NCBI GenBank assembly: GCA_903870175.1
Contig: CAIQBY010000166.1
Location: 1,395 to 65,394 of the forward strand
Length of the DNA: 64,000 bases
Origin: an uncultured Bacteroidota bacterium
GTDB taxonomy: Bacteria > Bacteroidota > Bacteroidia > 2-12-FULL-35-15
Direction: 5' to 3'
A program made the translations under genes and the position numbers. Shown one piece after another: positions 2,244 through 62,391 of the stretch (its first letter is position 1; every line of letters begins with the position of its first letter). The notes under the pieces are model-generated. The model saw only the letters and a list, made by a program, of their open reading frames with translations. It ran no database searches and was not told the origin of the DNA.

Positions 2244-3098
2244 TTATAAACTTGCAATAAAAGGTATTATTACAAACAATCCTAAAATAATTATGCCCAA
2301 TACCAAACCTGTTATTGCATAATGACGATAAATAACATCTCTAGGATTATCCCGAATATATCTAAAAGTACGCACTGCTCTCGTAATAGCCATAATACTA
2401 AGTACGATTGCTGCAATGTAAAGAGCCGAACCTAAAATTATCAATGCAGCTCCGCCAACTCCTACTGTAAGCAGAGCAAATGCCCCAAGTAAAATAAATA
2501 GAAGTGCAGCTAAAATAAACCCTAAAGCAGCCAAACCAAAGTTCCTGGAACTTTTTGCTATATTTTCTGTTTCAGAATGTTTGACCATTTTATTGGAATC
2601 TTTTAATCTATAATCATCCGGTTCCGGTTCCTTATATGATTTCAGCACTTCCGGATTCTCTTCCTTCCCGTTGCTATAAGTAATTCCTGCTATTTTATCT
2701 TTACTTATTGTTCTTATTACTTCCCTAACATCGTCGCAATCTTTATATTTTACTGACGAATTATTTATCTCGGTTACTTTTCCATGAATTACTGATTTGT
2801 CTTTTAATCGTATTACGTCGCATGAATCGCTTACCGCAACAGGTTTTTCAATTGAGATTAATGGTGAAGGTTTTTCAATAATTATCGGCGTTATGTCGTT
2901 GCCGGCAGAAGCGGAAATATCATTCGAAATATTTTTTTCGTTATCAGTTGTCTCCTTTTCAGGGGCAGTATTTTTATTGGCATTTATTTTTTTATTCCAT
3001 TGGATGCTGTATCCATTCATATAATGACGTTTTTGGATGGAACAGCTTGTCATCAAAAAAACAATAAGCAAAGGAATCAGGAAGAATAATTTTTTCAT
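2244..3098 (-). CDS. Hypothetical lipoprotein with C-terminal multi-helix membrane anchor
   Basis: ORF 2244..3200, but the likely start is the internal ATG at 3098 (MKKLFFLIPLLIVFLMTSC, a lipoprotein signal with lipobox Cys). C-terminus has three hydrophobic helices. No recognisable catalytic domain. Confidence 0.55.
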   Translation of the reverse strand: MKKLFFLIPLLIVFLMTSCSIQKRHYMNGYSIQWNKKINANKNTAPEKETTDNEKNISNDISASAGNDITPIIIEKPSPLISIEKPVAVSDSCDVIRLKDKSVIHGKVTEINNSSVKYKDCDDVREVIRTISKDKIAGITYSNGKEENPEVLKSYKEPEPDDYRLKDSNKMVKHSETENIAKSSRNFGLAALGFILAALLFILLGAFALLTVGVGGAALIILGSALYIAAIVLSIMAITRAVRTFRYIRDNPRDVIYRHYAITGLVLGIIILGLFVIIPFIASL

Positions 3099-3389
3099 TA
3101 ATAAAATGATTGTTACAGGCTGCAAAGTTAGTTTAATAAATAAACTGATAAAATAAGTTGTGGGATTCGATTGACCTATTTCCAGATTTACTTTCGCCAA
3201 AAAATATTTTCCCTTTCTTCTCCTAATTCAACAAATTTAGCTTTGTATAAAATTCCTTTTCTGCCAGTTTTTATTTTCAGCCATCTTTTATAGAGTTTTT
3301 TTAAGACCACTTTTTGTTTTAACTTTTAGGGAAATGCTCAACTATTCTTCAACTAAACTTCTAAAAGGTGAAAAAGCACTTCTTCTCCA

Positions 3390-3625
3390 TTTTTCTGAAA
3401 ATCTGTTAAGATTTTCGGAAAACTTGTGATGATTTTCGGAAAACAATCAAACGATGATGAAAATTTGCAAAGATTTTCGGAAAACTTACAATGATTTTCA
3501 GAAAATTTGTGATGATTTCAAGTAATCTTTGAATGATTCATGAAATCAGTGAAGATTTTGTAAAAATGTTAAATGATTTTCAGTAAATCTTTGAAGAGTT
3601 TCAGTAAATCTTCAAAGATGTCCAA
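3390..3625. repeat. Degenerate 21-bp tandem repeat array (~11 units, consensus ~GATTTTCGGAAAACTTGTGAT) in divergent intergenic region
   Basis: Unit starts recur every 21 bp (gattttcggaaaacttgtgat / gattttcagaaaatttgtgat / gattttcagtaaatctttgaa ...). Lies between the start of the minus-strand lipoprotein gene and the plus-strand T9SS gene. Confidence 0.8.
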
Positions 3626-3867
3626 AAAAGGCTTTTTTGCGTTCAAAATATCAATTTAATACAGTGATAATAAGTAAATCAATCAATAATTAAACACTTA
3701 AAATTTAGAAATCATATTAAAGTTAAATGTTAAAATAGTGTTTTATTACTTTTTTATGGCATTTGTAAAGTATATGTCGGACGATTTTGGTTCATTTCAA
3801 AATAGATGACGTCCTGAAAGCAAAAGACGACTTATTTCCAAAAATCACTCTTATATATAAGATAGAT

Positions 3868-3880
3868 TGTTTAGTTTTGT
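3868..3880 (+). promoter_or_regulatory. Candidate Bacteroidota -7 promoter box (TAnnTTTG) upstream of T9SS gene, inside duplicated module A
   Basis: ttTAGTTTTGtaaaacc lies ~25 bp upstream of the TTG start. The identical box recurs at 4851..4863 upstream of the second gene. Confidence 0.35.
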
Positions 3881-3898
3881 AAAACCAAATCCGCACAA

Positions 3899-4843
3899 TT
3901 GAAAAAGTACCTGTTTTTATTTATTGGAATACTGTTTTTTGTGAATGTAAAGGCGCAAGTACCAAATTTTTTTGTTGATGGCTCTGTTTGGTCATATTAT
4001 ACACAGGAAAGCTATGAACCTAATATGTGTACAACTCAAAACACATTGGAGAATGATTCAATACAAGGAGATACGGTAATAAATAGTATTAGTTATAAAA
4101 AATTATTTGCCTTGAGTCAGGTATCTATTCAAACTTATTATCCTTGTTATAATGGCACTACTTATCCAGTTGGTACAACTCTAAAATTTATTCGATATGA
4201 TACAGTAACGAGAAAACTATTTATGAAAAATGATACCGGCACTTATGTACCTGAAATACTGTTATACAATTTTAATCTCATCGCAGGAGATACGATTCCA
4301 CTTATTCCTGGCTACAATAGTGGTTTTAGTGGATGTAGAATTATTGATTCCGTAAAAAGTATTATATTTTTTGGAATCCCTGTTCGCAAATTTTATATGC
4401 CTTATATGCCGAGTAATCATCAGGGAAATTATATTATTGAAGGAATGGGAGGCTCAAATGGGTTAACTTTTTTTCAGCCTCAAATGATTTTATCGTCAGG
4501 CGGATATTATTTAACATCACTTAATTGTTTTAAATCTGGAAATAATGTTTACCCAAATGGGGCTTCTTGTCCTTCATTTATTCCAGTAGGCATCCAAGAA
4601 CTCCAAAACAAAACAACATTAGAACTTTCGCCAAACCCAAATAACGGCAGCTTCACAATTACAAGCAATAATCCACAACTAAAAACCATACATATATATA
4701 ATGTACTTGGCGAAGAAGTTTTTCATTCCGAAATCAACAATACTAAATCCGAAATCATAACAAACAATTTGCCAACGGGAATATATTTTGTAAAAGTTTC
4801 TTCGGAAAAAGAAGTGCTTACAAAAATGATGGTGAAGGAATAA
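3899..4843 (+). CDS. Secreted protein with T9SS (Por) C-terminal sorting domain
   Basis: 314 aa with a TTG start. Signal peptide MKKYLFLFIGILFFVNVKA. The last ~75 aa (LSPNPNNGSFTI...GIYFVKVSSEKEVLTKMMVKE) are a typical T9SS type-A CTD. Confidence 0.75.
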   Translation: MKKYLFLFIGILFFVNVKAQVPNFFVDGSVWSYYTQESYEPNMCTTQNTLENDSIQGDTVINSISYKKLFALSQVSIQTYYPCYNGTTYPVGTTLKFIRYDTVTRKLFMKNDTGTYVPEILLYNFNLIAGDTIPLIPGYNSGFSGCRIIDSVKSIIFFGIPVRKFYMPYMPSNHQGNYIIEGMGGSNGLTFFQPQMILSSGGYYLTSLNCFKSGNNVYPNGASCPSFIPVGIQELQNKTTLELSPNPNNGSFTITSNNPQLKTIHIYNVLGEEVFHSEINNTKSEIITNNLPTGIYFVKVSSEKEVLTKMMVKE

Positions 4844-4881
4844 GATAGATTGATTAGTTTTGTAAAACCAAATCCTCACAA

Positions 4882-5475
4882 TTGAAAAAGTACCTGTTTT
4901 TATTTATTGGAATACTGTTTTTTGTGAATGTCTCATGTAAAAAAGACCAGTCAATAATTAATGTAGTTATTCCAAACGGTGATTTTGAAAATTGGGATTG
5001 GTTACAATTCCCTCAAAATTGGAAAACTAATAGCTGCCCGCCATGCACACCACCTTACGAAATGAATATAGCTCAGGAAGATTCCCTTGAAGTATATCAT
5101 GGAAAATACAGTGTAAAATTAATATATAATTTAACTCCACCGATTTTGGGAGCTGCACCAACATGGTTAAAAAATAAATTTGCAATCACTGACCATCCTA
5201 ATAATTTGCATGGATATATTAAGTGCAATATACATGGTACAGATACTGTGTACATCGGAATCAAGTTGTTGAATAGAGGAGTAACAGTTGATGAAGGAAA
5301 TTGGAAAAGCACTGTAACAATAAACAATTGGACTTTAGTTAACATTCCAATTTCACAATCAAACTCAACAATTGATTCTGCTCTTATAACAATTATTGGA
5401 GGGAAATTCAAAGACTCAACCACAACTATGACGAATAGTACTACGTTTTGGGTTGATAATTTATTTTTGAATTGA
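4882..5475 (+). CDS. Hypothetical secreted protein (lipoprotein-like) sharing signal peptide with upstream T9SS gene, lacking a CTD
   Basis: 197 aa with a TTG start. The first 16 aa and ~90 bp upstream are identical to gene 3899. VNVSC suggests a lipobox. An in-frame stop comes before the orphan CTD fragment at 5508..5583. Confidence 0.5.
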   Translation: MKKYLFLFIGILFFVNVSCKKDQSIINVVIPNGDFENWDWLQFPQNWKTNSCPPCTPPYEMNIAQEDSLEVYHGKYSVKLIYNLTPPILGAAPTWLKNKFAITDHPNNLHGYIKCNIHGTDTVYIGIKLLNRGVTVDEGNWKSTVTINNWTLVNIPISQSNSTIDSALITIIGGKFKDSTTTMTNSTTFWVDNLFLN

Positions 5476-5507
5476 AAAAATTGAGATGGCAATAAAATTC
5501 ATATAGA

Positions 5508-5583
5508 TTTGCCAACGGGAATATATTTTGTAAAAGTTTCTTCGGAAAAAGAAGTGCTTACAAAAATGATGGTGAAGGAATAA
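5508..5583 (+). pseudogene. Orphan 3' fragment of a T9SS C-terminal sorting domain (duplicate of 4768..4843)
   Basis: 76 bp identical to the last 25 codons plus stop of gene 3899..4843. It is not in frame with, and is separated by a stop from, gene 4882..5475. Confidence 0.7.
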
Positions 5584-5760
5584 ACACCGCGATTCGTAAA
5601 TTCGTACTATTAGTTATCCGTACCTACTTTGCTCCCTATGCAGAAAATAAAATAACATATCTTCATTATTTATCAACCAATAAAAATTCACACACTTATT
5701 ATCCTTAATTTTGCCGCGCAACTTTCAAACTTTGAACTTTACAATTTTGAACTAATTAAA

Positions 5761-6858
5761 ATGAGCGGCAATACTTTCGGAACAATTTTCAAATTAACCA
5801 CTTTTGGCGAATCTCACGGAGAAGCCATCGGCGGAATAATTGACGGTTGTCCTGCCGGATTAGTCATTGATTTCGATTTTATTCAACATGAATTGGAACG
5901 CAGAAAACCCGGGCAATCCAACATCGTTTCGCAACGAAAAGAAAGCGACAAAGTTCAATTTCTTTCCGGCATTCTCGACGGCAAAACCATAGGCACTCCA
6001 ATAGGTTTTATTATTAAAAACGAAAATCAAAAACCGCAGGATTACGAACATATAAAAGACATCTATCGCCCGTCTCACGCCGATTATACTTACCAGACAA
6101 AATACGGAATAAGAGATTATCGTGGCGGCGGACGGTCATCTGCCCGCGAAACAATAAGCAGAGTGGTGGCAGGAGCAATTGCAAAATTAATATTGAAACA
6201 GTCCGGAATATCAATAAATGCCTACACTTCGCAGGTTGGTGATATTAAATTATTGAAGGATTATCACGAACTCGATTTATCAATGACAGAATCAAACGCC
6301 ATCCGTTGTCCCGATAAATTAATTGCCGAAACAATGATTCAGCGCATCGAGCAGGTTCGCAAAGCAGGAGATACAATAGGCGGAATAATAAGCTGCATAA
6401 TTAAAGGAACACCTGCAGGGCTTGGCGAGCCTGTGTTTGATAAGCTTCATGCTGATTTAGGAAAAGCAATGCTGAGCATCAATGCAGTAAAAGGTTTTGA
6501 ATATGGCAGCGGTTTCGAAGGAGTAAAAATGAAAGGCAGTGAACATAATGATGCTTTTATTCCGAACACCAGTCTTGATGAAATGATGATGAGACATCAA
6601 ACCAAAACCAATAACAGCGGCGGAATTCAAGGAGGAATATCAAATGGAGAAGATATTTATTTCAGAGTAGCATTTAAACCTGTCGCTACTATTATGCAAT
6701 CTCAGGAAACAATAAATTCAAAAGGAGAACCGGCAGAAATGCAAGGCAAAGGCAGGCACGACCCTTGCGTATTGCCACGCGCAGTGCCTATTATAGAAGC
6801 TATGGCTGCACTCGTTTTAGCAGATCATTTATTAAGAAATAAAACAAATAAAATGTAA
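5761..6858 (+). CDS. aroC: Chorismate synthase
   Basis: 365 aa. N-terminal FGESHG, and conserved chorismate synthase blocks ([19 protein letters not shown]). Confidence 0.95.
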
Positions 6859-6875
6859 AAACAAAGTACTTCACA

Positions 6876-6926
6876 TTCCGTCACCCCTCTCCTTTTTTCA
6901 AGGAGAGGGGCTGGGGGTGAGGTAGC
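6876..6926. terminator. GC-rich palindrome after aroC (CCCCTCTCC..GGAGAGGGG, with a second overlapping inverted repeat)
   Basis: tcacccctctccttttttcaaggagaggggctgggggtgagg forms a stable hairpin in an AT-rich region between aroC and the OmpA gene. Confidence 0.5.
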
Positions 6927-6938
6927 AACAAAAAATAT

Positions 6939-8951
6939 ATGTACAAAACCATCCTCTTTTTATTCTTCACTTTTATTTATTTCAATTCTTTTTCACAGGA
7001 CGAAAAACCTTGTCAGGAAATTGATAATGCTAAAGCAGTAGCTCTTTATAAACAAGGTATCGATAAGAAAAATAAAAAAGAAGAACGGCTTGATTATCTT
7101 AAAAAAGCACTTGATTTGGAACCAGATTATGTAGATGCCAATTTTGCTTATGCTGAAGAAAAAATAAAAACATTGATTTATCAGAACGCACCTTTTAAGC
7201 CTACTGAGCCTTATTTTAAGAAGGTAATTCAAATCTGTCCAAAGTATCATTCCGATCCGTATTATTATCTTGGTTTTATTTATTATGAAGAAGAAAAATG
7301 GGATAGCTGTGCAAAATATTTAAAAAGTTTCATGAATTATAAATCGGATGATGATACTAAATTCAATAAAAATTATCCTGCATTTATGTCGCAGGCAAAG
7401 GATATGATGAGTTATGCAAAAGTGTATAATGAAATATTCAATCATCCTGTTCCCTTCGATCCGAAACCTGTGGAAGGAATAAGTACAGAGCGTGATGAGT
7501 ACCTGCCGATAATTTCTCCGGATGATGAAACAATGTATTTCACACGCCGAATGCCATATCAAAGCAAAACTGGAATATCAGGTGCAACATACGATAACGA
7601 AATAGAAGTTTTTAGTTTAAGTAAACGAGATGGTGTAACTCATAAATTCAGTAAAGGCGGAGCAATGCCTCCTCCATTTAATACAGGGAACAATGAAGGC
7701 GGTGCAACAATAAGTATTGACAATAAACATTTGTATTTCACAATTTGTAAGGATGAAAAAGGAGCGGCAGGAAATTGTGATATATATTATTCAGATTTGG
7801 TGGACGGAGTCTGGACAAAACCTGAGAAAGTGCCGGGAATAAACGATCCTGTTTACTGGGATTCACAGCCTACTCTAGCTTCCGATGGTAAAACATTGTA
7901 TTTTGCAAGTGACCGGAAAGGCGGTTATGGTGGTGTTGATTTATATGTAACAGTAAAAGATGAAGTTACAAACCAATGGAGCAAGCCTGAAAATCTCGGT
8001 AAGACTATTAATACCAATGGAGATGAAAAGTCACCTTTTATTCACTCCGATTTTCAAACACTCTACTTTTCTTCAAACGGACTGCCCGGTGTTGGAGGAT
8101 TTGATATTTTCTTTTCCCGTAAAAATGAGAAAGGTGCCTGGTCAGAGCCTAAAAATATTGGAGTTCCGATCAATACCAATTCGGATGACTTAGGCTTTTT
8201 TGTTAGTACCGACGGGCATCTTGGCTACTTCGCTTCCAATGTTCATTCGCAAATGAAAAATAAATCTATTGGGGGATATGATATTTACGCATTTGATTTG
8301 TATAAAGAGGCGCGACCTGATGAAGTAGCTTTTATCAAAGGAAAGGTTGAAGATTTAGGGAACGCACCGGCTAAGAAATTTGATGTGGAAGTGAAAGATG
8401 CCACCACAAAGAAAACTACTAAAGCGATGGTAGATACTATTACCGGCGAATATTCGGTGGTTGTTGACAGAAAGGAAAAACATGATTTGATTGTGGAAGT
8501 TAAAAAGGAAAATTACGCTTTCAGTTCTCAGTTAATTCATAAGGATTCAATAGTGAATGCTAAACCTGTTAAAGTAAAAGTAACTGCCGATACTATCAAA
8601 GTTGGGCAAACTTATTTACTTAACAATATTTATTATGCGACCAATTCATCGGTTCTCGATCCTCGCTCTAATATTGTTATAGATGAGTTTGTCGAGTTTT
8701 TGAAAGCGCATCCTTCAATGAAAATTGAAATTCACGGACATACTGATAATGTAGGAAATGACAAAGCAAATCTTGCTTTGTCAACAGACAGAGCATTTAC
8801 AGTTCGTGATTTATTGCTTGCAAAAGGAATTGCTGAAAAACGTTTGATAGCCTTTAAGGGATTCGGTGCCACAAAACCTATAGCTGATAATTCTTCGGAA
8901 GCAGGGCGTGCAAAGAACAGAAGAACCGAGTTTGTAATCGTTGAAAAGTAA
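6939..8951 (+). CDS. OmpA-family outer-membrane-associated protein with TPR and TolB-like beta-propeller (WD40-like) repeats
   Basis: 670 aa. Signal peptide. TPR-like N-terminus, repeated TolB/WD40-like blocks (DGKTLYFASDR.., TLYFSSNG..), and a C-terminal OmpA peptidoglycan-binding domain (HGHTDNVGNDKANLALSTDRAFTVRDLL..NRRTEFVIV). Confidence 0.85.
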   Translation: MYKTILFLFFTFIYFNSFSQDEKPCQEIDNAKAVALYKQGIDKKNKKEERLDYLKKALDLEPDYVDANFAYAEEKIKTLIYQNAPFKPTEPYFKKVIQICPKYHSDPYYYLGFIYYEEEKWDSCAKYLKSFMNYKSDDDTKFNKNYPAFMSQAKDMMSYAKVYNEIFNHPVPFDPKPVEGISTERDEYLPIISPDDETMYFTRRMPYQSKTGISGATYDNEIEVFSLSKRDGVTHKFSKGGAMPPPFNTGNNEGGATISIDNKHLYFTICKDEKGAAGNCDIYYSDLVDGVWTKPEKVPGINDPVYWDSQPTLASDGKTLYFASDRKGGYGGVDLYVTVKDEVTNQWSKPENLGKTINTNGDEKSPFIHSDFQTLYFSSNGLPGVGGFDIFFSRKNEKGAWSEPKNIGVPINTNSDDLGFFVSTDGHLGYFASNVHSQMKNKSIGGYDIYAFDLYKEARPDEVAFIKGKVEDLGNAPAKKFDVEVKDATTKKTTKAMVDTITGEYSVVVDRKEKHDLIVEVKKENYAFSSQLIHKDSIVNAKPVKVKVTADTIKVGQTYLLNNIYYATNSSVLDPRSNIVIDEFVEFLKAHPSMKIEIHGHTDNVGNDKANLALSTDRAFTVRDLLLAKGIAEKRLIAFKGFGATKPIADNSSEAGRAKNRRTEFVIVEK

Positions 8952-9049
8952 GGTTTTCCACCTCATTTTATTCACTTTATTTAACCTGCCTTAACATCAA
9001 ATTATTATTATCTTTGCGCCCTTAAATTTCAGTTTTACATTAAAAATAA

Positions 9050-10942
9050 ATGGATAAAAATTCAGTAATAGGTCTTGTAATAATAGGCGGTATTTTAATG
9101 GGTTGGATGTACTTTTCAAGACCAAGTGCGGAACAGCTTGCAATTCAAAAACGTATGCAGGATTCTACTCTTGCTTATGTGAAAGTTCAGGAAACCCTTG
9201 CAACAACTCACAAAACTAATAAATCAACTCATACTGCAGGTTCAGGAATCTCAACAGATTCAATTGTTAACCTGAGCGATTCGGCCAAATCTGTTCTTAA
9301 GAAATCTGTATATGGCGATTTTGCTGATGCTTCCACTGGTGATAACAAAACAATTGTACTTGAAAATGAAGTGATGAAAGTAAATGTTTCTCCGAAAGGA
9401 GGACGCATTTCTTCTGTCGAATTAAAGAAATATAAAACATATGATGGCAAGCCTTTGATGTTATTTAATGCAGATTCTTCTACTCAAAAGCTAACATTTG
9501 CCACCTATAATAAGTCATTTGCAACAGATTCATTATATTTTACTCCAGTAGGTGATGCATTTATCCTGACAGGTAAAGCTTCCAAAAGCCTTGCTATGAG
9601 ATTGTATGCAGGCAGTAAAGAAAAATACATTGAATATGTTTATACTCTTACTGGAGATGAATATATGATGGGCTGTAAAATAAATACGGTAGGTATGCAA
9701 AGCGTAATCCCTGCAACCAAAGGGGAAATAGAGCTTAACTGGCAAATGAAAACACCTACGCAGGAACAAAATAAACAAAACCAACAACGTGCCTCCACCA
9801 TCTATTATAATACAATTGAAGATGGGGTTAAAAAGATAAGTGAAGGTACGGAAGATAAGATATCATTTGATACTAAAATGAAATGGGTGGCTTTTAAACA
9901 GCAGTTTTTTACTTCGATTATTATTGCCGATAATACATTTGAAAAACATACGGAAGTAGAATCTGCAATGGAAAAAACTTCTGCTAAATATATAGCAAAT
10001 TATGCCGCAACATTTTCTATTCCTTATAAAGGTTTACCAAATGAATCATTTGGAATGCGTTTTTATTTCGGTCCTAACCATTATCAAACACTCAAAAAAT
10101 ATGATGTTGATATAGAACGACAAATAAATCTTGGCTGGAAAATATTCGGATGGATTAATCGTTTCCTTGTTATTCCAATTTTTAATGTGTTGAATAGTTT
10201 TAATTGGAATTATGGAATTATTATTCTTGTACTTACTATTATTCTTAAATTATTATTGTTGCCGATAGCTTATAAAACAGTGCTTTCGTCTGCAAAAATG
10301 AAAGTATTGAAACCTGAGATTGATGAATTAAACGAGAAGTTTAAGGATGCAGAACCTGTTAAAAAACAACAGGCAACTATGGCTCTTTACAAGCAGGCAG
10401 GTGTTAATCCGATGGCAGGCTGTATTCCAGTACTGCTTCAAATGCCTATACTTATAGCTTTGTTTAACTTCTTCCCTGCGTCTATCGAATTACGTCAGCA
10501 GGGATTCCTTTGGGCGCATGATTTATCGTCTTACGATTCGGTTTACAACTTTGGTTTTTCCGTTCCATGGTATGGCGACCATGTTAGCTTGTTTGCTTTA
10601 TTGATGACTGGTTCCACATTATTATATACCTGGAGCAACAGTCAATTGATGGGCACTCAGCAACAAATGCCGGGTATGAAATGGATGATGTACTTGATGC
10701 CGATTATGTTCCTCGGTTTCTTGAATAATTACTCTGCAGGATTAAGCTGGTATTATTTCCTTGCCAATATGATTACTTTTGGACAGACTTGGGTGATGCA
10801 GAAATTTGTGATTGACCATGATAAATTGCATGCAAAAATTCAAGCCAATAAAAAGAAACCTGTTACAAAGTCAAAGTTTCAGGAGCGTTTGGAACAAATG
10901 ACAAAAGAGCGTCAGCAACAAACACCGGCGAAGAAAAAATAA
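9050..10942 (+). CDS. yidC: Membrane protein insertase YidC (long Bacteroidota form)
   Basis: 630 aa. Large periplasmic domain followed by a conserved YidC/Oxa1 core (LPIAYKTVLSSAKMKVLKPEIDELNEKFKD..ALYKQAGVNPMAGCIPVLLQMPI). Confidence 0.9.
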   Translation: MDKNSVIGLVIIGGILMGWMYFSRPSAEQLAIQKRMQDSTLAYVKVQETLATTHKTNKSTHTAGSGISTDSIVNLSDSAKSVLKKSVYGDFADASTGDNKTIVLENEVMKVNVSPKGGRISSVELKKYKTYDGKPLMLFNADSSTQKLTFATYNKSFATDSLYFTPVGDAFILTGKASKSLAMRLYAGSKEKYIEYVYTLTGDEYMMGCKINTVGMQSVIPATKGEIELNWQMKTPTQEQNKQNQQRASTIYYNTIEDGVKKISEGTEDKISFDTKMKWVAFKQQFFTSIIIADNTFEKHTEVESAMEKTSAKYIANYAATFSIPYKGLPNESFGMRFYFGPNHYQTLKKYDVDIERQINLGWKIFGWINRFLVIPIFNVLNSFNWNYGIIILVLTIILKLLLLPIAYKTVLSSAKMKVLKPEIDELNEKFKDAEPVKKQQATMALYKQAGVNPMAGCIPVLLQMPILIALFNFFPASIELRQQGFLWAHDLSSYDSVYNFGFSVPWYGDHVSLFALLMTGSTLLYTWSNSQLMGTQQQMPGMKWMMYLMPIMFLGFLNNYSAGLSWYYFLANMITFGQTWVMQKFVIDHDKLHAKIQANKKKPVTKSKFQERLEQMTKERQQQTPAKKK

Positions 10943-10961
10943 TCGAACTAAAATAATTGTT

Positions 10962-10999
10962 AACCTCTTTCAGAATTTAGATTTCTGAAAGAGGTTTTT
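10962..10999 (+). terminator. Rho-independent terminator after yidC
   Basis: cctctttcagaa..ttctgaaagagg hairpin followed by ttttttatttt. Confidence 0.7.
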
Positions 11000-11070
11000 T
11001 ATTTTGGAACCAATTCAAAAAAGAAGTAACTTTAACCATTAAATTTATTTCTAACTAATGCCTCCTCCTC

Positions 11071-11649
11071 ATGAAATTTGTATTCGCTACCAGAAATAAA
11101 CACAAAGTGGCTGAAATCCAGTTACTCATTCCAAATCCAATTCGTGTTTTAAGTTTACATGATGTACATTGTATGGAAGATATTCCTGAGACAACTCCAA
11201 CGATTGAAGGCAATGCATCGCAAAAAGCTTTTTATGTTTACGAAAAATATCATCATAATTGTTTTGCTGATGATACCGGTTTGGAGATTGAAGCATTGAG
11301 TGGAAATCCCGGTGTGAGGTCGGCGAGATATGCAGGTGAGGATATGAATGAAGAAAATAATATAAGAAAAGTGCTGAATGAAATGGACGGAATTGCCCAC
11401 CGGAAGGCGCGATTTAAAACTGTGATTTCACTTGTTATTGATGGCAGTGAAATGCAGTTTGATGGATTGATGCATGGTTCTATTCTGCATGAAAAACGCG
11501 GTTCGAATGGTTTTGGGTACGACCCGATATTTATACCTGATGGTTATTCCCGTACGTTTGCTGAAATGGAATTAAGCGAAAAAAACAAAATATCTCATCG
11601 GGCAATGGCAGTTAATAAACTTGTTGAATACTTGCAAAAACTTGCCTGA
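11071..11649 (+). CDS. rdgB: Non-canonical purine NTP pyrophosphatase (RdgB/HAM1, ITPase)
   Basis: 192 aa. FATRNKHKVAEI N-terminus and FGYDPIF..SHRAMAV C-terminal motifs of the Ham1 family. Confidence 0.9.
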   Translation: MKFVFATRNKHKVAEIQLLIPNPIRVLSLHDVHCMEDIPETTPTIEGNASQKAFYVYEKYHHNCFADDTGLEIEALSGNPGVRSARYAGEDMNEENNIRKVLNEMDGIAHRKARFKTVISLVIDGSEMQFDGLMHGSILHEKRGSNGFGYDPIFIPDGYSRTFAEMELSEKNKISHRAMAVNKLVEYLQKLA

Positions 11650-11730
11650 ATCCCCCACTTCAATAACTTACATTTGCATTACTTTAATTATCGAAACTCA
11701 TTCCTCTTTTATTAGGAATAAATTTTATTT

Positions 11731-14433
11731 ATGAAAATAGGAATAATATTCGGAGGGTTCTCCAAGGAGCGTGAAATATCATTTGCAGGCGGTAGAACAG
11801 TGTATGATAATCTCAATAAATCATTGTTTGAGGCAGTTCCGATTTTTGTGGACAGTTTCGGCAATTTTGTTTTGCTTAACTGGGGATACGTTTATAAAGG
11901 CAGTATTCGCGACTTTTATCCGCCTGCTGAATTTATTCCTAATAAGAAAGGCGACTTCCAGATATATGCTGAGCAGATAGGTGATTTATCCTCAGCCGAA
12001 CAATTAAAACTCATTAATAAAATCGGGAAAAAGATTGAGCCAAATGAGTTGAAGAATCATTTCGATTTCGCTTTTTTATGTCTGCATGGCCCGTATGGAG
12101 AGGATGGCAGGATACAGGGATTGTTTGAATATTTAAATATTCCTTATTCCGGTTCGGGGATTTTACCATCTTCCATCGGCATTGATAAATCGGTGCAAAA
12201 GAGGCTGATGGTGAATGCAGGATTTAATAGTCCGAAGTATATTACTATTGACAGAGAAGAATTTATCAGTGGAAATTGTAAAGAACCAATTCGAAAAGCA
12301 AAGGAGGAAATTGGTTTCCCGATGGTGGTGAAACCCGCTAATCAAGGGTCGTCTATTGGTGTTACTATTTTGCACGACAATGATGAATATAACATTGCAT
12401 TGATGGGAGCAATCGGAAAAGCTTTGTTTACCGAGTGGATAGATGCGAATGACTGGAAAAATTTATCCTCTGAAGACAAGACAAGTTTAATACGATTAAT
12501 GGCTGATATTCGTGAAGGTATAGGAATGCCTCTCGTAGTTTGGACTTCGACATATCCTGAAAAGAAAACAATTTGTCATCCTGCAGATTTAATTGAGTAT
12601 CTGGATTCTCTTTTTGAAAATGAAAAAGAAGGAGCAGTGCTCGAAGCACTTGATGGAGAAAGCAAAGTGCTGGTGGAAGGATTTATTGAAGGCAAAGAAT
12701 TCTCATGTATTGTGGCGCAGGTTGAAAATAGAAAAGCAATAGCGTTACCACCTACAGAGATAAGGAAGGGGAAAGAATTATTTGATTACAGGAGTAAATA
12801 TTTACCGGGATTATCAAGAAAGATTACACCGATTGATTTACCTAATGAGCAGATACAGGCTATCCGGAAGGAATGCGAGCGATTGTTTTATGAACTGAGC
12901 TTTGATGTGTATGCGCGTATTGATGGTTTTATTTCGAAGGAAGGAAAGATATTTTTGAATGATCCGAATACAACTTCCGGTATGATGCCGAGTTCTTTTT
13001 TCTTTCATCAGGCGGCTGAGATTGGGTTGAATCCTTCACAGTTTTTAACTTATATTATCCGTCAGTCTTTGTCGCAACGAATACTTGCCAGTAAAAACAA
13101 TGGCTTGTATGATGCGCTGATGGCGGATTTGGATAAGGCGATAACAAAAGATAAAACTTCATCTACAAAGAAAATAAAAGTGGCTGTGATACTTGGCGGC
13201 TATTCTTCGGAGCGACATATTTCTGTAGATAGCGGCAGAAATATTTATGAGAAACTTGCTTCTTCGGCTAAGTACGAGCCTATTCCGGTGTTTCTGACAG
13301 GCAATGCGGACGAACATATTATGTATCAGATTCCGATTAATATTTTGCTGAAAGATAATGCAGATGATATTAAAGATAAGATTGAACATTATAAAGTGCA
13401 CGAACTGGTAAAGGAAATTATTGGTGAATGTGCTGCCATTACAGGCAAATATGGCGCTGAGGATAATCTGGTGAAGCCAAAACGAATTACTTATACTGAC
13501 CTGGCGAAGATGGTAGATGCTGTATTCATTGCGTTACACGGTCGTCCGGGTGAAGATGGTGCGGTGCAGGCAAATCTGGAGAAGGTTGGATTGCCTTATA
13601 ACGGCTCGGGTGTGGCGAGTTCGCAGATTACGATTGACAAGTATAAAACGAATGAGATTTTAAAACAAAATGGTTTTCTGGTTGCCGAGCATCTTCTTAT
13701 TTCGGAAGAAGAATGGTTGAATAATAAAATTGAGGTGCTGGAAAATATAAAGAATAAAATTCATTTTCCTTTTATTGCAAAGCCTGTGGATGATGGCTGT
13801 TCGTCGGCTGTAAAGAAAATAAAAACGGTGGAAGAACTGGAAGCTTTTGCTTCTTTGATTTTCAGGAAGGATGAAGCATTAATAACTGATGCTGCGAATG
13901 TGCTGCATATAAAGGATAAGGAGGAGTTTCCTATGAAAAAATGTTTGTTGGTAGAGGAATTAATAAGCAAACGGGATGCAACTCATTTTCTGGAAATAAC
14001 AGGCGGAATGCTTACTAAATATAATGCTAAAGGAGAAGTGGAGTATGAAGTATTTGAAGCTTCGGAAGCATTATCGGAAGGAGAAGTATTATCGCTGGAA
14101 GAAAAATTTCTGGCAGGACAAGGGCAGAACATAACGCCGGCGCGTTATTCGGCTGATGTTACGGTGAGACAATTGATATCCGACAAGGTGAAAAAAACAT
14201 TTGGCGAAGCCGCAAAACTGCTTAATATAAACGGTTATACAAGGATTGATGCGTTTGTGCGCATATATGATTTGAGTAAAATAGAAGTTATTTTTATTGA
14301 AGTAAATTCGTTGCCGGGGATGACGCCTGCTACCTGCATCTTTCATCAGACGGCGATACAAGGTTATAAACCGTATGACTTTATTGACAGGATTCTTGAG
14401 TTTGGGTTTGAGAGGAAGAAACGAAATAGCTGA
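11731..14433 (+). CDS. Tandem (didomain) D-alanine--D-alanine ligase-like ATP-grasp protein
   Basis: 900 aa. Two complete Ddl-like modules: aa 1-~450 (MKIGIIFGGFSKEREISFAGG..LHGPYGEDGRIQG..KPANQGSSIGV) and aa ~480-900 (KVAVILGGYSSERHISVDSG..LHGRPGEDGAVQ..KPVDDGCSSAV..EVNSLPGMTPATCIF). The first module carries a long insertion. Confidence 0.8.
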   Translation: MKIGIIFGGFSKEREISFAGGRTVYDNLNKSLFEAVPIFVDSFGNFVLLNWGYVYKGSIRDFYPPAEFIPNKKGDFQIYAEQIGDLSSAEQLKLINKIGKKIEPNELKNHFDFAFLCLHGPYGEDGRIQGLFEYLNIPYSGSGILPSSIGIDKSVQKRLMVNAGFNSPKYITIDREEFISGNCKEPIRKAKEEIGFPMVVKPANQGSSIGVTILHDNDEYNIALMGAIGKALFTEWIDANDWKNLSSEDKTSLIRLMADIREGIGMPLVVWTSTYPEKKTICHPADLIEYLDSLFENEKEGAVLEALDGESKVLVEGFIEGKEFSCIVAQVENRKAIALPPTEIRKGKELFDYRSKYLPGLSRKITPIDLPNEQIQAIRKECERLFYELSFDVYARIDGFISKEGKIFLNDPNTTSGMMPSSFFFHQAAEIGLNPSQFLTYIIRQSLSQRILASKNNGLYDALMADLDKAITKDKTSSTKKIKVAVILGGYSSERHISVDSGRNIYEKLASSAKYEPIPVFLTGNADEHIMYQIPINILLKDNADDIKDKIEHYKVHELVKEIIGECAAITGKYGAEDNLVKPKRITYTDLAKMVDAVFIALHGRPGEDGAVQANLEKVGLPYNGSGVASSQITIDKYKTNEILKQNGFLVAEHLLISEEEWLNNKIEVLENIKNKIHFPFIAKPVDDGCSSAVKKIKTVEELEAFASLIFRKDEALITDAANVLHIKDKEEFPMKKCLLVEELISKRDATHFLEITGGMLTKYNAKGEVEYEVFEASEALSEGEVLSLEEKFLAGQGQNITPARYSADVTVRQLISDKVKKTFGEAAKLLNINGYTRIDAFVRIYDLSKIEVIFIEVNSLPGMTPATCIFHQTAIQGYKPYDFIDRILEFGFERKKRNS

Positions 14434-14578
14434 TATTATCAGTATTCAATAACGATTATAACTTAACATTCTCGCAAATAGTTATCGGTAGGATTATCTT
14501 TATTTCAGTAAATAATATCTGCTTAATATTTGTATTTTCGCACCCTGAAAATTAAAAACGTATTAATAAATAATAATA

Positions 14579-15955: not shown

Positions 15956-15981
15956 GGTAATCGATAAATAATCAATTAATA

Positions 15982-16022
15982 AAATCTCTCTGGAACATTT
16001 GATTTCAGGGAGATTTTTTATT
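15982..16022 (+). terminator. Rho-independent terminator after the CBS gene
   Basis: aaatctctctgg..cagggagatttttt hairpin with a T-run. A second hairpin (cccttctcc..ggagaaggg) follows at ~16063..16095. Confidence 0.6.
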
Positions 16023-16256
16023 AATACGAGTATTGAATCTTTAATAGTTACGAAGACCTCATCCCCGGCCCTTCTCCTTGAAAAAAAGAGAAGGGTGCCA
16101 ATGTGTGAAGTGCTATATTAAAGGATTAGTTGTTGAGGAAAAGTATATTGACTTGCCCTTCTTTAATTGTTACCTTTGTTGAAATTAAGAACGTGAATTA
16201 GCAATTTGTTTTCTTCGTTTATTATTAAATGAAAAAATAAATCTAAACTAATTATC

Positions 16257-22629: not shown

Positions 22630-22850
22630 TTTCCCACGCCCATAGGAAATTTTCCCGTTCCCGTTGGAACCATTCCCACTCCCGTTTGAATCGTTCCCTC
22701 TCCCGTTTGAACCGTTCCAGTTCCCGTTGGAACGGTTCCAATTACCGTGGGAACCGTTCCCATTACCGTGGGAATCTTTCCCGTTCCCGTTGGAACCGTT
22801 CCAACGACCGTGGGAACCATTCCCACTACCGTGGGAACCGTTCCCACGGC
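22630..22850. repeat. 21-bp tandem repeat array (~10.5 units, consensus TGGGAACCGTTCCCATTACCG) each containing the palindrome GGAACNGTTCC
   Basis: A periodic array sits in the 428-bp intergenic space between the convergent patatin and mlaD genes. Both overlapping ORFs (22497-22847 minus; 22664-22993 plus) are heptapeptide-repeat artefacts of the array. Confidence 0.85.
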
Positions 22851-28394: not shown

Positions 28395-28398
28395 GTGT

Positions 28399-33088: not shown

Positions 33089-33350
33089 ACCTTGTTTTTC
33101 TCCTTGTTTCAATAAGAATGGATATTGTTTGAATGATATCCGATATTATTTGAACAAGAACCAATCTTATTTGAACAAGAACCAATCTTGTTTCAATATG
33201 AACCTACCTTGTTTAAATGATATCCGATCTTGTTTGAATGATATCGGATATTATTTGAACAAGAACCATTATTGTTTCAATAAGAACCAATCTTATTGAA
33301 ACAAGATCCATTCTTGTATGAATAAGATCCATTCTTATTGAAACAAGGAG
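33089..33350. repeat. 21-bp tandem repeat array (~12 units, consensus ~RTTTGAAYAAGAWCCAATCTT) bounded by 24-bp inverted repeats
   Basis: Units include gtttgaatgatatccgatatt, atttgaacaagaaccaatctt and others. The terminal inverted repeat is ctccttgtttcaataagaatggat (33100-33123) paired with atccattcttattgaaacaaggag (33327-33350). Located in an 840-bp divergent intergenic region. Confidence 0.85.
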
Positions 33351-33789: not shown

Positions 33790-35880
33790 ATGAAAAGAAT
33801 TACTCTCTCCTTATCAGTTATTGTAGCACTTACAATTCTTTCGTTTACAAGCCGAGCACAAACAAATGTGAGTGGCGGAATACACGTAAATACTACTTGG
33901 ACTTTAGCAAATAGTCCGTATATAGTAGTAGATACTGTGGTTGTATTTCCGGGGATAACGCTTACTATACAACCGGGTGTTGTTGTGAAATTTAATAATA
34001 CAATGCAACTTGAAATAAGGCAGGCAACGCTAATAACAAATGGAACAAGTGCAAATCCAATTACTTTTACAAGTAATTCAAGTTCGCCGACACCAGGTAT
34101 TTGGGAAAGTATTTATTTAAACCAATGTGTTTCTGCGGGTTTTAATTACTGTAATTTTAGTTATTCAAAATATGGAATTGCTAATTCAAGTACTCTTCAA
34201 ATATCAATTAAAAACTCAAATTTTACATTTAATACAAATGGAATTTATCAATGTTTTATCAATATGGATTCATGTGTTTTCAAACATAATACAAATGGTA
34301 TTAATACTGCCATGGGTCCTGGGAAAATACTTAATTCCATTTTTACAAATAATCAGAGTGGATTATTAAATAATGACGGCTCCAAAACAATAAATTGTAT
34401 TTTCAATTCCAATCAAACTGGAATAACCATAAGCGGATATAGGGTTTTAATAAAAAATTGTGTAGTTGATTCTAATACCACATTAGGAGTTAGTTTACCC
34501 CCAAGTGGAAATTATGATACCATATTTAATAATCAGATAAAATATAACGGCATTGGTTTGGAAAGTGCCGCTGCTTCAAGTGGTGCAATAATAACTAAAA
34601 ATGTTTTTGATAATAACAATATAGGCATTAAAGAAAGCAATAATGTCGATTCTATATATTGTAATAGAATTTGTAACAGTACTTCCTACGCTTTTTATTA
34701 TAATGCAAATTCTAATTATAATGCATATTTAGGAAATAATTATTTTTGTACCCCCGATTCTATTTCAACAGCAGCTGTAGTTTATGATGGATATGACAAT
34801 ATAAATTATGGCTTAGTAAATTTTATGCCGCTTGATACAACCAATTGTTATCAAACTGGTTGCAATCTTCATGTCTCAGCAAATATTACCAGTGCAACTT
34901 GCAGGACTTGCCCAAATGGTTCAGCAATTGCTCATGTTCTATACGGTTTTCCTCCATATACATACACTTGGTATTCTACACCAATTCAAAACACACAAAC
35001 AGCTATAGGTTTGGCTTCCGGCAATTATGGAATATGTGTTACAGACGCAAACGGATGTTCCGCCTGCGACACTATTTTTGTAGACTCTACAAATTGTACT
35101 GGGTTTTCCATTGTTCCAAACTCAACTAATGCTTCGTGTACTACCTGTGCTGATGGTACAGCTAAAGTTATTCCAACAGGCGGCACAGCACCATATCATT
35201 ATACTTGGTACACTAGCCCTATGCAAACAACAGACTCTATTTCAGGATTAATTCATGGTACTTATCATGTTTGTGTTACTGATGCGAATGGTTGTATATC
35301 CTGCGATTCAACTACTGTGAATGTTGGAAGTTGTTCGGCACATTATAATCTGTATTCTACTGCCACTCCGCATTATTATACAGCTGTGAATATGGCTTCG
35401 GGCGCAGCGCCTTTAACCTATTACTGGAGTTGGGGAGATGGCACACACGATACAGCAGCATATCCAAGTCATACCTATGCTGCAACAGGTTTTTACAATA
35501 TCTGCCTCACTATTACCGATAATGCTGGATGTACCAATACCTATTGTTCTTCATATTATTTACTCCGTCCGCAAAGTCAAATGGTTTATGTAAATGTAAT
35601 TTCAAATACAACAGTTGGTATAAATCAATTGATAGCAGATAATTCTATTTCAATTTATCCCAATCCATTCACCTCCCAAACAACAATTTCTTTTTCTACC
35701 GAACAAACAAATACTTCAATAAAAATAACAGATGTGGTAGGCAAAGAAATAAAAACAATAAACTTTACCGGCACACAATATATTTTGGAAAAAGGAATAA
35801 TGAAGCCAGGTATTTATTTCGTGCAGATAACGGATGCCAATAAAAATGTGGTGAACAGAAAAATAATTATTAATGATTAG
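33790..35880 (+). CDS. Secreted parallel beta-helix / Cys-rich repeat protein with T9SS C-terminal sorting domain
   Basis: 696 aa. Signal peptide. Beta-helix-like N-rich repeats, then three ~80-aa Cys-rich modules (C.TC..G.A...GG.PYTYTWY...GL..G.Y.VCVTDANGC), a PKD-like segment, and a T9SS CTD (SIYPNPF...GIYFVQITD). Confidence 0.8.
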   Translation: MKRITLSLSVIVALTILSFTSRAQTNVSGGIHVNTTWTLANSPYIVVDTVVVFPGITLTIQPGVVVKFNNTMQLEIRQATLITNGTSANPITFTSNSSSPTPGIWESIYLNQCVSAGFNYCNFSYSKYGIANSSTLQISIKNSNFTFNTNGIYQCFINMDSCVFKHNTNGINTAMGPGKILNSIFTNNQSGLLNNDGSKTINCIFNSNQTGITISGYRVLIKNCVVDSNTTLGVSLPPSGNYDTIFNNQIKYNGIGLESAAASSGAIITKNVFDNNNIGIKESNNVDSIYCNRICNSTSYAFYYNANSNYNAYLGNNYFCTPDSISTAAVVYDGYDNINYGLVNFMPLDTTNCYQTGCNLHVSANITSATCRTCPNGSAIAHVLYGFPPYTYTWYSTPIQNTQTAIGLASGNYGICVTDANGCSACDTIFVDSTNCTGFSIVPNSTNASCTTCADGTAKVIPTGGTAPYHYTWYTSPMQTTDSISGLIHGTYHVCVTDANGCISCDSTTVNVGSCSAHYNLYSTATPHYYTAVNMASGAAPLTYYWSWGDGTHDTAAYPSHTYAATGFYNICLTITDNAGCTNTYCSSYYLLRPQSQMVYVNVISNTTVGINQLIADNSISIYPNPFTSQTTISFSTEQTNTSIKITDVVGKEIKTINFTGTQYILEKGIMKPGIYFVQITDANKNVVNRKIIIND

Positions 35881-45039: not shown

Positions 45040-45116
45040 TGTCATAAATTTTATGACTTATAAATCTTAAATGTTTTTTTGTGCGGGCAACATCCTTCCA
45101 TGTTGCAATATTCTAA

Positions 45117-45220
45117 CCCGCTTTCCCCTCCAATCTTATTTGCCTTGAAAAAAGGCAAATAAGGATTTCCGGTATAATCGGGCGCAGTTGCAAGTGCATC
45201 GTTCTCCTAAAGTTTTCCAT
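45117..45220. ncRNA. Conserved ~105-nt intergenic element, copy 1 (strand unresolved). Contains hairpin TTATTTGCCTT/AAGGCAAATAA
   Basis: Near-identical to 62207..62310 outside the hairpin. The hairpin stems differ but both pair perfectly (compensatory). Confidence 0.45.
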
Positions 45221-45278
45221 ACCAGGAGAGTAGTTAAAATAGCAATTCATCCAAAACCAACAAGTTACAATTAACAAA

Positions 45279-45520
45279 ACTCCAAGTTTAGTCAGCCAAC
45301 CTCCAAGTATTGACACCAAACCTCTAAGTTTAGTCAGCCTGCCTCCAAGTATTGACACCAAATCTCCAAGTTTAGTCAGCCTGCCTCCAAGTATTGACAC
45401 CAAACCTCTAAGTTTAGTCAGCCTGCCTCCAAGTATTGACACTAAATCTCCAAGTTTAGTCAGCCTGCCTCCAAGTTTAGTTAGCCAACCTCCAAGTTTA
45501 CCAAGCAAACTTTTAAGTTC
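45279..45520. repeat. 42-bp (2 x 21-bp) tandem repeat array (~5.5 units: CTCCAAGTTTAGTCAGCCTGC + CTCCAAGTATTGACACCAAAY)
   Basis: Perfect or near-perfect copies immediately after conserved element copy 1, upstream of uvrD. The minus-strand ORF 45113-45571 is a heptad artefact of the array. Confidence 0.85.
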
Positions 45521-45615
45521 GTTCAATAGACTCACAAAAAAACTCGCCACAATCACCAACCTCCCCATCATTACTTTTCAACAACCAAATTTCCCAACAA
45601 CAATTTAATCTACCT

Positions 45616-62079: not shown

Positions 62080-62206
62080 TGTAATGGATTTTAAGTGAAT
62101 TATTAAATTGTTTTTATAGTGAGATGCATCCCCCTTTAAAATTCCATAAACAATTTTGAAATATTTTTTTTGGCGACCAAAGTTCCTGCCATCCATCAAG
62201 TTCGTT

Positions 62207-62310: not shown

Positions 62311-62391
62311 CAAAGCACAAAAAAAGCCTCGTATTTCTACGAAGCTTTCTTCTTCAAACTTTTAAACTTTAAACTTTCAAACTTTGAACTA

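Follow-up and report, generated by a model that had tools for sequence, protein, structure and literature searches.

An eroding array of 21-bp units in a divergent intergenic gap of an uncultured Bacteroidota bacterium belongs to a clade-wide population of fast-turning-over tandem repeats of the same period

This study concerns array A1, a tandem repeat in a 64-kb stretch of DNA from an uncultured Bacteroidota bacterium (contig CAIQBY010000166.1). The whole stretch is called the window below; all coordinates refer to it, and genomes were compared on the basis of the window and of short loci from relatives. A1 lies between two divergently oriented genes, one for a lipoprotein-like membrane protein and one for a cargo protein of the type IX secretion system (T9SS), and the first-pass annotation, made from the sequence alone, had correctly placed it in a divergent region of ~800 bp between genes of these two kinds (Table 1). 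The wider region is ordinary chromosome with relA/spoT, aroC, a gene for an OmpA/PD40 protein, yidC, and ddl.

The lengths of the A1 units are, in order, 22, 21, 22, 19, 21, 21, 21, 19, 21, 21, and 21 bp (mean, 20.8 bp). Tandem Repeats Finder (TRF) reported a period of 21 bp in two calls, at 3391-3518 (6.1 copies, 69% matches, 5% indels) and at 3564-3618 (2.6 copies). The autocorrelation of the array was 0.586 at lag 21 and 0.51 at lag 42, with peaks also at lags 62-63; in dinucleotide-preserving shuffles of A1 (n = 2000) the best lag between 8 and 59 gave at most 0.478, and 0 of 2000 reached the observed value. The eleven units of 19-22 bp with a period of 21 bp that had been described before were thus recovered by TRF, the unit table, autocorrelation, and shuffles, and the autocorrelation check proposed at that time, once run, revealed a 21-bp periodicity (0.586) beyond that of the 2000 shuffles. 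A1 is closed by stop codons in six of six frames, the longest open reading frames (ORFs) measuring 22-34 aa. A 31-aa ORF entering A1 differed in 9 of 31 residues from its counterpart in a diverged relative (L091) at 89% DNA identity and hence is not conserved as a protein. With stops in every frame and this ORF unconserved, a coding repeat was ruled out, in agreement with the earlier statement that the array is not coding sequence.

Table 1. Coordinates of the features at the A1 locus and of the other 21-bp arrays in the window
Feature	Position	Strand	Description
Lipoprotein-like membrane protein gene	2244..3098	-	Signal peptide with ...LMTSC; hydrophobic C-terminus
Divergent intergenic gap	3099-3898		800 bp; between lipoprotein-like gene and T9SS-cargo gene
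Likely -7 box TAACTTTG	3123..3130	-	~25 bp before lipoprotein ATG at 3098
Overlapping TAnnTTTG boxes	3232..3245	+ (3238) / - (3239)	Within the block of the gap that is conserved best
Array A1	3388..3616	n/a	11 head-to-tail units, non-coding (TRF, unit table, autocorrelation, shuffles, ORFs)
A1 sub-block a, units 1-6	3388..3513		Core (G)ATTTTC-N-GAAAA(Y); 5 of 6 units keep TTTTCNGAAAA; unit 4 eroded
A1 sub-block b, units 7-11	3514..3616		Core GATTT-TCAGT-AAATC; dyad axis as in sub-block a
Vestigial twelfth unit	3617..3639		GATGTCC, then A6-GGC-T6 hairpin CAAAAAAGGCTTTTTTG (3621-3639) at the array edge; read from sequence
Likely -7 box TAGTTTTG	3872..3879	+	20 bp before TTG start of T9SS-cargo gene, inside 92-nt duplicated head
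T9SS-cargo gene	3899..4843	+	Por_Secre_tail C-terminal domain (Pfam); TTG start giving signal peptide MKKYLFLFIGILFFVNVKAQ
Array A2	22640..22849 (TRF 22652-22846)		~10 units of 21 bp (TRF 9.3 copies); higher order 63 bp
Array A3	33103..33347		~11.6 x 21 bp; higher orders 42/84/105 bp
Array A4	45275..45500		10.5 x 21 bp; higher order 42 bp, 89% matches

An A1 unit is composed of a dyad box of 13-15 bp and a linker of 6-7 bp. The 13-15-bp dyad is found on a common axis in 10 of the 11 units, and the simplest ancestral unit would be the 15-bp box GATTTTC-N-GAAAATC together with a linker of 6 bp. In the window, the palindromic core TTTTCNGAAAA is present in six copies compared to 0.64 expected, a ninefold excess, and five of the six are inside A1. 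The core that the first-pass annotation had given, GATTTTCRGWAAAY, holds for part of the array: it is exact in units 2, 3, 5, 6, and 10 and has one mismatch in unit 11, whereas units 1, 4, 7, 8, and 9 are degenerate. In sub-block b the outer arms of the palindrome were retained and the inner pair is gone, and the linkers TTTGAA and TTCAAA are reverse complements of each other, which creates a near-palindrome of ~25 bp around unit 11. The evidence for symmetry is to be taken with care: compared with shuffles, the canonical 5-1-5 dyad was not significant on its own (P = 0.12), and the 7-5-7 arms of sub-block b were (P = 0.02). The differences between the sub-blocks look like one palindrome eroding independently rather than like compensatory change. 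The hairpin CAAAAAAGGCTTTTTTG at the A1 edge was not called in a terminator scan. The units of 19 and 22 bp cause the dyad centres of A1 to drift by 0.29 helical turn (~105 degrees) between unit 1 and unit 11. The proposal that every unit is placed on the same DNA face is therefore valid within the blocks but not over the whole array.

A1 is not an assembly artefact, since it was base-for-base identical in an independent assembly (L001) and since the spacing between the called genes, 741 bp, was unchanged in two further assemblies from other samples (L086 and Ntgnf3m5). The whole gap showed two single-nucleotide polymorphisms (SNPs) relative to L001, both outside A1. With regard to a phase-variable locus, whose copy number would differ between strains or within populations, A1 had one length in the four same-species assemblies, which possibly represent one strain. 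In L091, whose lipoprotein is 83% identical, the gap was 89% identical, and the first two A1 units were kept with 3 mismatches in 45 bp; the L091 contig ends inside the array, so that only these two units could be compared. A1 itself is common only to this close relative, and the T9SS gene has more distant homologues (65% and 56% identical), which were found in another context and with no array. A1 is old and eroding, yet length-stable among the available assemblies.

The window contains three further arrays with a period of 21 bp, A2, A3, and A4 (Table 1), and their higher-order periods are multiples of 21 throughout. TRF and a comparison of consensus units with shuffles confirmed the earlier remark that the window holds four unrelated 21-bp arrays, as the best circular identities between units were at shuffle level at every rotation and on both strands. 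The A2 unit is a near-complete palindrome (CCGTGGGAAC-C-GTTCCCACGG), and the gap that holds A2, flanked by a patatin-like gene and mlaD, is convergent (3'-3'). A3, whose gap is divergent, lies upstream of a further T9SS-cargo gene (33790..35880), and A4 is found in a gap upstream of uvrD, 85 bp from a Flavo-1 element (45110-45189, minus strand). As unrelated arrays of the same period are present in a convergent gap (A2) and beside Flavo-1 (A4), the period is not peculiar to divergent promoters. The only ORFs over A2 and A3 are of low complexity and do not extend beyond the repeats. The 152-aa ORF extending over A4 (45113..45571) is probably spurious, because it overlaps the Flavo-1 match, and open frames in A2 and A4 would be expected of stop-free 21-mers.

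The Flavo-1 RNA motif (RF01705) was detected at 45110-45189 (minus strand, 58.5 bits) and at 62200-62279 (minus strand, 67.7 bits), in both cases above the gathering threshold, and the second element abuts a small 8/15/23-bp repeat at 62352-62397. According to the literature, Flavo-1 matches are found irrespective of transcript strand (PMC9723704). A link of Flavo-1 to the arrays was ruled out, since the motif adjoins A4 only and none is near A1, A2, or A3.

The closest species representative is the metagenome-assembled genome (MAG) ELA565 (L006), whose RelA is 90% identical, followed by relatives with 69-77% identity. L006 carries an array of 16.4 x 21 bp with a higher order of 63 bp and a unit unrelated to the window arrays. 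Three sister species were retrieved via patatin orthologues with 79-83% identity. Locus L100 contained arrays of 8.3 x 21 bp and 3.6 x 22 bp, the latter starting at the patatin stop codon; the L105 contig begins within a 21-bp array; and no array was found at the L103 locus. In the slot after the patatin gene, the window and L100 have mutually unrelated arrays, and L103, L105, and L106 have none. Because sister species show different arrays or no array in one and the same slot, the arrays turn over and do not reflect conserved regulation. When arrays with a period of 21-22 bp and at least 3 copies were counted, 8 were found in ~131 kb of clade DNA compared to at most 1 in 1.41 Mb of RelA loci of other Bacteroidota, the sole candidate outside the clade being an ambiguous 21/28-bp case in Pedobacter alpinus. 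The local density amounts to ~60 arrays per Mb. Contigs repeatedly start or stop at such arrays, several of them at the A1 edges, and because contigs break there, short-read MAGs under-report arrays. Taken together, A1 is genuine, non-coding, and part of a clade-wide, fast-turning-over population of arrays with the same period.

The surroundings of the arrays also varied between relatives. In L006 (11919-12118, compared to 2244-14500 of the window) relA/spoT directly precedes a PALP/CBS gene, so that the 12-kb block with A1 (the lipoprotein gene, the T9SS genes, aroC, ompA, yidC, and ham1, up to ddl) is absent or located elsewhere. The sequence upstream of the PALP gene differs once more in L100 and L103, and the region around the A1 block looks like a rearrangement hot spot. 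L006 has further tandem repeats at 15209-16065, of 336 bp (2.2 copies, 97% identical) and 126 bp (2.9 copies), containing GC hairpins such as CCGTAGGAGCG...CGCTCCTAC that resemble repetitive extragenic palindromic (REP) sequences; both periods are multiples of 21, yet a 21-bp sub-periodicity was missing (autocorrelation 0.22 at lag 21). The sister locus L100 harbours a genuine array of short palindromic repeats that are clustered and regularly interspaced (CRISPR) at 3689-4317, with ~10 repeats of 34 nt (TGTGATTTGATTTCAAAGATTGATAAATGACATT), unique spacers of ~32 nt, and a period of 66, which is 250 bp away from the L100 21-bp array. The genes adjoining this CRISPR (461 aa and 110 aa) had no Pfam or NCBIfam match, and thus no recognisable cas gene was within reach.

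Several properties were examined as possible common denominators of the arrays. A shared motif was ruled out, as none was found between arrays at any rotation or on either strand. Dyad symmetry is strong in A2, where the 8-1-8 arms of the consensus gave P = 0.001, a 10-1-10 palindrome is perfect in one unit, and the z-score for RNA folding was -8.5. It was not significant in A3, A4, L006, L100a, and L105 and, being significant only in A2 and in sub-block b of A1, does not qualify as a class property. Intrinsic curvature was predicted with a wedge model, and the values are indicative only. A1 has a predicted curvature of ~20 degrees per 21-bp unit, which belongs to the top 2% of genomic windows and is ordinary for a 21-bp array, 33% of synthetic arrays being more curved. 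As A2, A3, and L100a were predicted to be straight, curvature was discarded as well. The arrays occupy divergent, convergent, and tandem gaps, and they share only the period, its higher-order multiples, a length of ~190-345 bp, and residence in long gaps. A phage origin was ruled out, because the A1 pattern and the A4 unit were unmatched in viral contigs and a 14-mer of A2 gave only single chance matches. The same applies to flanks of the kind left by miniature inverted-repeat transposable elements or target-site duplication, for which only a weak 24-nt inverted pair with 71% complementarity was found.

For the promoter scan we used the Bacteroidetes sigma-A -7 consensus TAnnTTTG (PMC9723704). 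Unit 1 of A1 is 258 bp away from the likely -7 box at 3130 (minus strand), and the last unit is 256 bp away from the one at 3872 (plus strand). In the overlapping pair of boxes, the plus-strand box at 3238 could drive a transcript into A1. The gap block 3220-3300, which holds the boxes at 3238 (plus) and 3239 (minus), is almost invariant between the window and L091 and exceeds the lipoprotein gene in conservation (89% DNA versus 83% protein identity). A short minus-strand ORF in this block comprises 40 aa in the window and 64 aa in L091, so that its length is not conserved. On the other side of A1, a hairpin-forming stretch, GGACGATTTTGGTTCATTTCAAAATAGATGACGTCC (3784-3830), immediately precedes a minus-strand site that resembles a terminator (3829-3810), and both SNPs between the window and L001 (3783 and 3798) fall in this stretch.

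The lipoprotein-like protein encoded at 2244..3098 matched no Pfam family at the cut-off, and only six homologues of it were found. The TTG start of the T9SS-cargo gene is supported by the identical 17-aa signal peptide of the next gene. A 92-nt head (3857-3948) carrying the -7 box, the TTG start, and the 17-aa signal peptide is duplicated at 4840-4931 with 98% identity, and a 77-nt tail (4767-4843), which covers the final 25 codons of the T9SS sorting domain, recurs at 5507-5583 with 100% identity. These copies substantiate the module duplication that had been noticed in the surface-protein locus. The adjoining surface-protein genes 3899..4843 and 4882..5475 show a cassette-like architecture. 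In the latter the tail copy falls past the stop codon, and this gene therefore either has lost its sorting domain or is a recombination remnant. Elsewhere in the window, at 27336-29604 (minus strand), a PAS histidine kinase adjoins an unusual response regulator with a receiver domain, a cyclic nucleotide (cNMP)-binding domain, and a Crp-type helix-turn-helix.

The primary paper on constant-size bacterial tandem repeats is reportedly that of Subirana and Messeguer in J Bacteriol 2020. In a later article (Int J Mol Sci 2021) these authors described 'enigmatic' tandem repeats with a constant size of 20-21 nt or 52 nt, which have variable, species-specific sequences, are mostly non-coding, and occur in scattered species of several phyla (PMC8161180). 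The authors remarked that 20-21 nt correspond to two helical turns; the roles proposed were protein polymerisation on the DNA (nucleoid) or small RNAs (PMC8161180). '21-nt-rich' Bacillus species possess ~22-29 arrays in 4.4-5.5 Mb, i.e., ~5-7 per Mb (PMC8161180, Table 4). The arrays of Bacillus weihaiensis share the signature TCGCGG, such a shared short signal being accessory and not defining (PMC8161180). With its period of 21 bp and mean unit of 20.8 bp, A1 falls within the class size of 20-21 (up to 23) nt; the class also comprises sizes of 22/44. Several same-size unrelated arrays are present in the genome (four in the window), A1 is non-coding with stops in all six frames, and the units of L006, L100, and L105 differ, as is typical of species-specific families. 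The accessory feature, a common short signal, is missing here, with no unit similarity at any rotation or on either strand. We consider it very probable that A1 is a member of this constant-size, variable-sequence satellite class, which is already published and still unexplained.

Our favoured reading, which as a whole package we hold tentatively and at slightly less than an even chance, is that A1 is an old, eroding array of a clade-specific population of 21-bp satellites and acts as a phased platform for protein. A 21-bp unit consisting of dyad box and linker would have been amplified in tandem by slippage or unequal recombination, and point changes together with indels of 1-3 bp would then have decayed A1 into its two sub-blocks. 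An oligomerising DNA-binding protein of the architectural or nucleoid type may occupy the phased platform along one face of the helix. Since unrelated arrays in the window genome and in sister species share the two-turn period, it is helical phasing that is kept, not sequence. Any effect on the lipoprotein and T9SS-cargo promoters, which are 256-258 bp off, would be indirect, via local topology or insulation, and A1 probably matters little to the two flanking genes. The phased-platform mechanism taken alone is possible but doubtful. The earlier suggestion that the array binds a regulator or nucleoid protein is partly borne out: it is in line with the non-coding nature of A1, the two-turn period, and the 15-bp dyad box, whereas the location off the promoters, the lack of a regulon, and the turnover do not agree with it.

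Several observations weigh against a protein platform. No sequence, dyad, or curvature feature is common to the arrays that a protein could read, and the erosion and phase drift of A1 suggest weak or no current constraint. Neutral or selfish DNA would explain the turnover between species just as well, and no candidate protein was identified in the 64 kb of genome and the short loci of relatives. Finally, the breaks of short-read assemblies at arrays bias which arrays are seen.

Contigs from metagenomes were scanned with a pattern for two adjacent cores, and four independent loci were obtained. An unidentified contig with 35% GC (L096, 911-1035) contained six tandem copies, at 21 bp, of a perfect box of the regulator CodY (AATTTTCAGAAAATT), and Metabacillus, a Firmicute (L097/L099), had a 4.6 x 20-bp array of the same core as A1. 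A contig with 51% GC (L098, 1041-1484) carried a 5.9 x 21-bp array, with three different arrays (31, 21, and 21 bp) stacked within 450 bp. On an unrelated low-GC contig (L095), two perfect GATTTTCSGAAAATC boxes were exactly 21 bp apart and 65-100 bp upstream of an ORF. L096 and L098 look like further members of the fixed-period class. As it was the search pattern that picked out these loci, they demonstrate no more than the existence of such arrays elsewhere and do not provide independent support.

The first-pass annotation had thought of a cooperatively binding regulator. In this vein, A1 would be a specific operator array on which one dimeric regulator of the winged-helix type binds GATTTTC-N-GAAAATC cooperatively at two-turn spacing and represses, insulates, or titrates at the divergent promoters; this reading appears unlikely to us. 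The 15-bp dyad box is present in 10 of 11 units on one axis, as an operator array would have it, but half of the A1 units are eroded, and the 5-1-5 dyad alone is not significant (P = 0.12). The ninefold excess of TTTTCNGAAAA in the window is owed to A1; in 141 kb of clade sequence the box is no more frequent than background once A1 is left aside, and no regulon is visible. The box matches the 15-nt consensus of CodY, a structurally characterised winged helix-turn-helix regulator (AATTTTCWGAAAATT), with 1 mismatch in unit 6 (GATTTTCAGAAAATT), 2 in unit 1, and 3 each in units 2, 5, and 10, yet matches with up to 3 mismatches were at chance level across the window (22 found versus 21.8 expected). 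In the literature CodY, which combines a GAF domain with the winged helix-turn-helix, figures as a regulator of low-G+C Gram-positives (PMC5314169, PMC10415144), and no CodY-like domain was detected among the ~39 window ORFs scanned. Multiple CodY dimers bind cooperatively to repeated sites, and cooperative sites overlap by 6 nt, i.e., they have a 9-nt offset and form a 24-nt composite (PMC10415144). The centre-to-centre spacing in A1 is 19-22 bp, so that the 9-nt offset rule is not obeyed. The resemblance of the two boxes may reflect the mere ease with which A/T-rich dyads arise. The twin boxes of L095 upstream of an ORF have an operator-like layout, and same-core arrays at 20-21 bp recur in Metabacillus (L097) and in L096, but these matches were pattern-selected. 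A1 lies 256-258 bp from both -7 boxes, and each of the other arrays would require its own regulator. A related idea, which we regard as distinctly unlikely, is that the clade has an undescribed system that makes or uses two-turn-phased arrays, be it an oligomerising protein or an amplification mechanism, with A1 as an amplified operator of a Bacteroidota regulator that converged on CodY-box specificity.

Rather doubtful, too, is the explanation that the arrays are a neutral or selfish by-product of a mutational process of the clade that favours 21-bp duplications, for instance through a bias in slippage or repair or through nicks staggered by two turns, followed by unequal recombination and drift. 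It would account for unrelated sequences in any long gap, for presence or absence varying between sister species, for the visible decay of A1, and for the lack of a common sequence, symmetry, or curvature feature, and unequal crossing-over typically gives higher-order periods such as the 42, 63, 84, and 105 bp observed. On the other hand, no known slippage mechanism fixes a 21-bp unit, no signature of target-site duplication or of a mobile element flanks any array, and A1 has kept its length in four same-species assemblies, with its first units persisting in the diverged relative L091. One size is moreover found in distant phyla with unrelated sequences (PMC8161180), which favours a physical constraint linked to the helix over an enzyme quirk of one lineage. 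A non-coding RNA transcribed across A1, for example from the plus-strand box at 3238 to the hairpin at 3621-3639, which would serve as a sponge or as a precursor of small RNAs, is very unlikely. The -7-type box at 3238, in the part of the gap that is conserved best, points into A1, the distal edge of A1 has a hairpin and then a T-run, and 52-nt Bacillus satellites were reported to be transcribed (PMC8161180, PMC8625621). A1 also folds better than shuffles (z = -3.3), but the opposite strand folds equally well (z = -3.2), which points to an array of DNA palindromes and rules out a strand-specific RNA structure. The unit dyad, with its 1-nt centre and arms of A/U only, would form marginal hairpins, Rfam gave no match at A1 even at E <= 10 apart from noise, with none for CRISPR models, and the sole ORF entering A1 is unconserved as protein. 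Tandem direct repeats of ~20 bp with internal dyads also resemble the iterons of replication origins and plasmid-type centromeres (parC, sopC), but such a replication or partition function is extremely unlikely for A1. The locus is a housekeeping one on the chromosome (relA/spoT, aroC, yidC, ddl), and at ~60 per Mb the arrays are too many for each to be an origin or a centromere. Genes of the rep, par, or dnaA kind are missing from the vicinity, as is a cluster of DnaA boxes within 370 bp of A1, the nearest DnaA-like 9-mer (1 mismatch) being located at 3997 inside a gene. The label 'iteron-like' of the first-pass annotation, if meant in the sense of replication, thus had to be dropped.

Whatever the origin of the arrays, the broader pattern mentioned in the first-pass annotation was its most informative part, and the enrichment at the clade level outweighs a single array in interest. 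The clade combines a high local array density and a clear turnover between sister species with array-poor relatives for contrast. These relatives (L007-L014, RelA 69-77% identical) provide a contrast for finding a co-occurring protein or mechanism, and if an undescribed system did exist, the clade would be tractable for identifying the missing factor by phylogenetic profiling. For annotation it is relevant that the arrays generate spurious 'hypothetical proteins' with heptad repeats (45113..45571; L100 3093..3569) and that they fragment short-read contigs. A promoter-proximal position alone does not make an array a regulator.

Among known systems, iterons have lengths of 17-22 bp and plasmid centromere repeats are exemplified by parC of pSK41 and R1 and by sopC of F. 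Like A1, they are head-to-tail repeats of ~20 bp that place sites on one helical face, where proteins can bind cooperatively; unlike them, A1 has a chromosomal housekeeping context without a Rep or Par gene, and its genome holds many arrays that differ in sequence. Tandem ARG boxes are 18-bp palindromes spaced 21 bp centre to centre, and in these operators and in site arrays of the Lrp/AsnC type 2-6 sites are found at the controlled promoter. A1 resembles them in having dyad boxes within a range of 13-18 bp at two-turn spacing, which permits binding of an oligomer on one face or wrapping of the DNA, and differs in having 11 sites, a distance of 256-258 bp from the promoters, and a different box sequence. 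The A1 box and the CodY box are both 15-bp pseudo-palindromes with the arms ATTTTC-N-GAAAAT, whereas the A1 host belongs to the wrong phylum and the spacing is 21 bp instead of the 9-nt offset of CodY. LytTR sites are non-palindromic 9-bp direct repeats with a 12-13-bp spacer that abut the -35 region in 2-3 copies, in contrast to the dyad-symmetric A1 units, which are present in 11 copies 256-258 bp from the -7 boxes.

REP sequences and bacterial interspersed mosaic elements (BIME) of enterobacteria and pseudomonads form one dispersed family per genome with alternating orientation. They share with the arrays described here the short palindromic intergenic units, which sometimes build regular tandem blocks, but the present arrays are each unique in sequence, arranged head to tail, and strictly of 21 bp. 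CRISPR, too, are non-coding and are made up of short repeats at regular spacing that show partial dyad symmetry; their repeats of 23-47 nt are separated by unique spacers of similar length, whereas A1 has only a 6-7-bp linker and no cas genes. The CRISPR of L100 illustrates this difference. The arrays of the clade lack a common short signature such as the TCGCGG of Bacillus weihaiensis, and their density of ~60 per Mb is ~tenfold above that of '21-nt-rich' Bacillus species, a rough comparison given that detection criteria differ. In the 21-bp size, the presence of several arrays per genome, the differing sequences, the non-coding nature, and the species specificity they are like the class of Subirana and Messeguer, whose published hosts include Bacillus, other Firmicutes, Cyanobacteria, and Actinobacteria, and here they occur in an uncultured clade of Bacteroidota.

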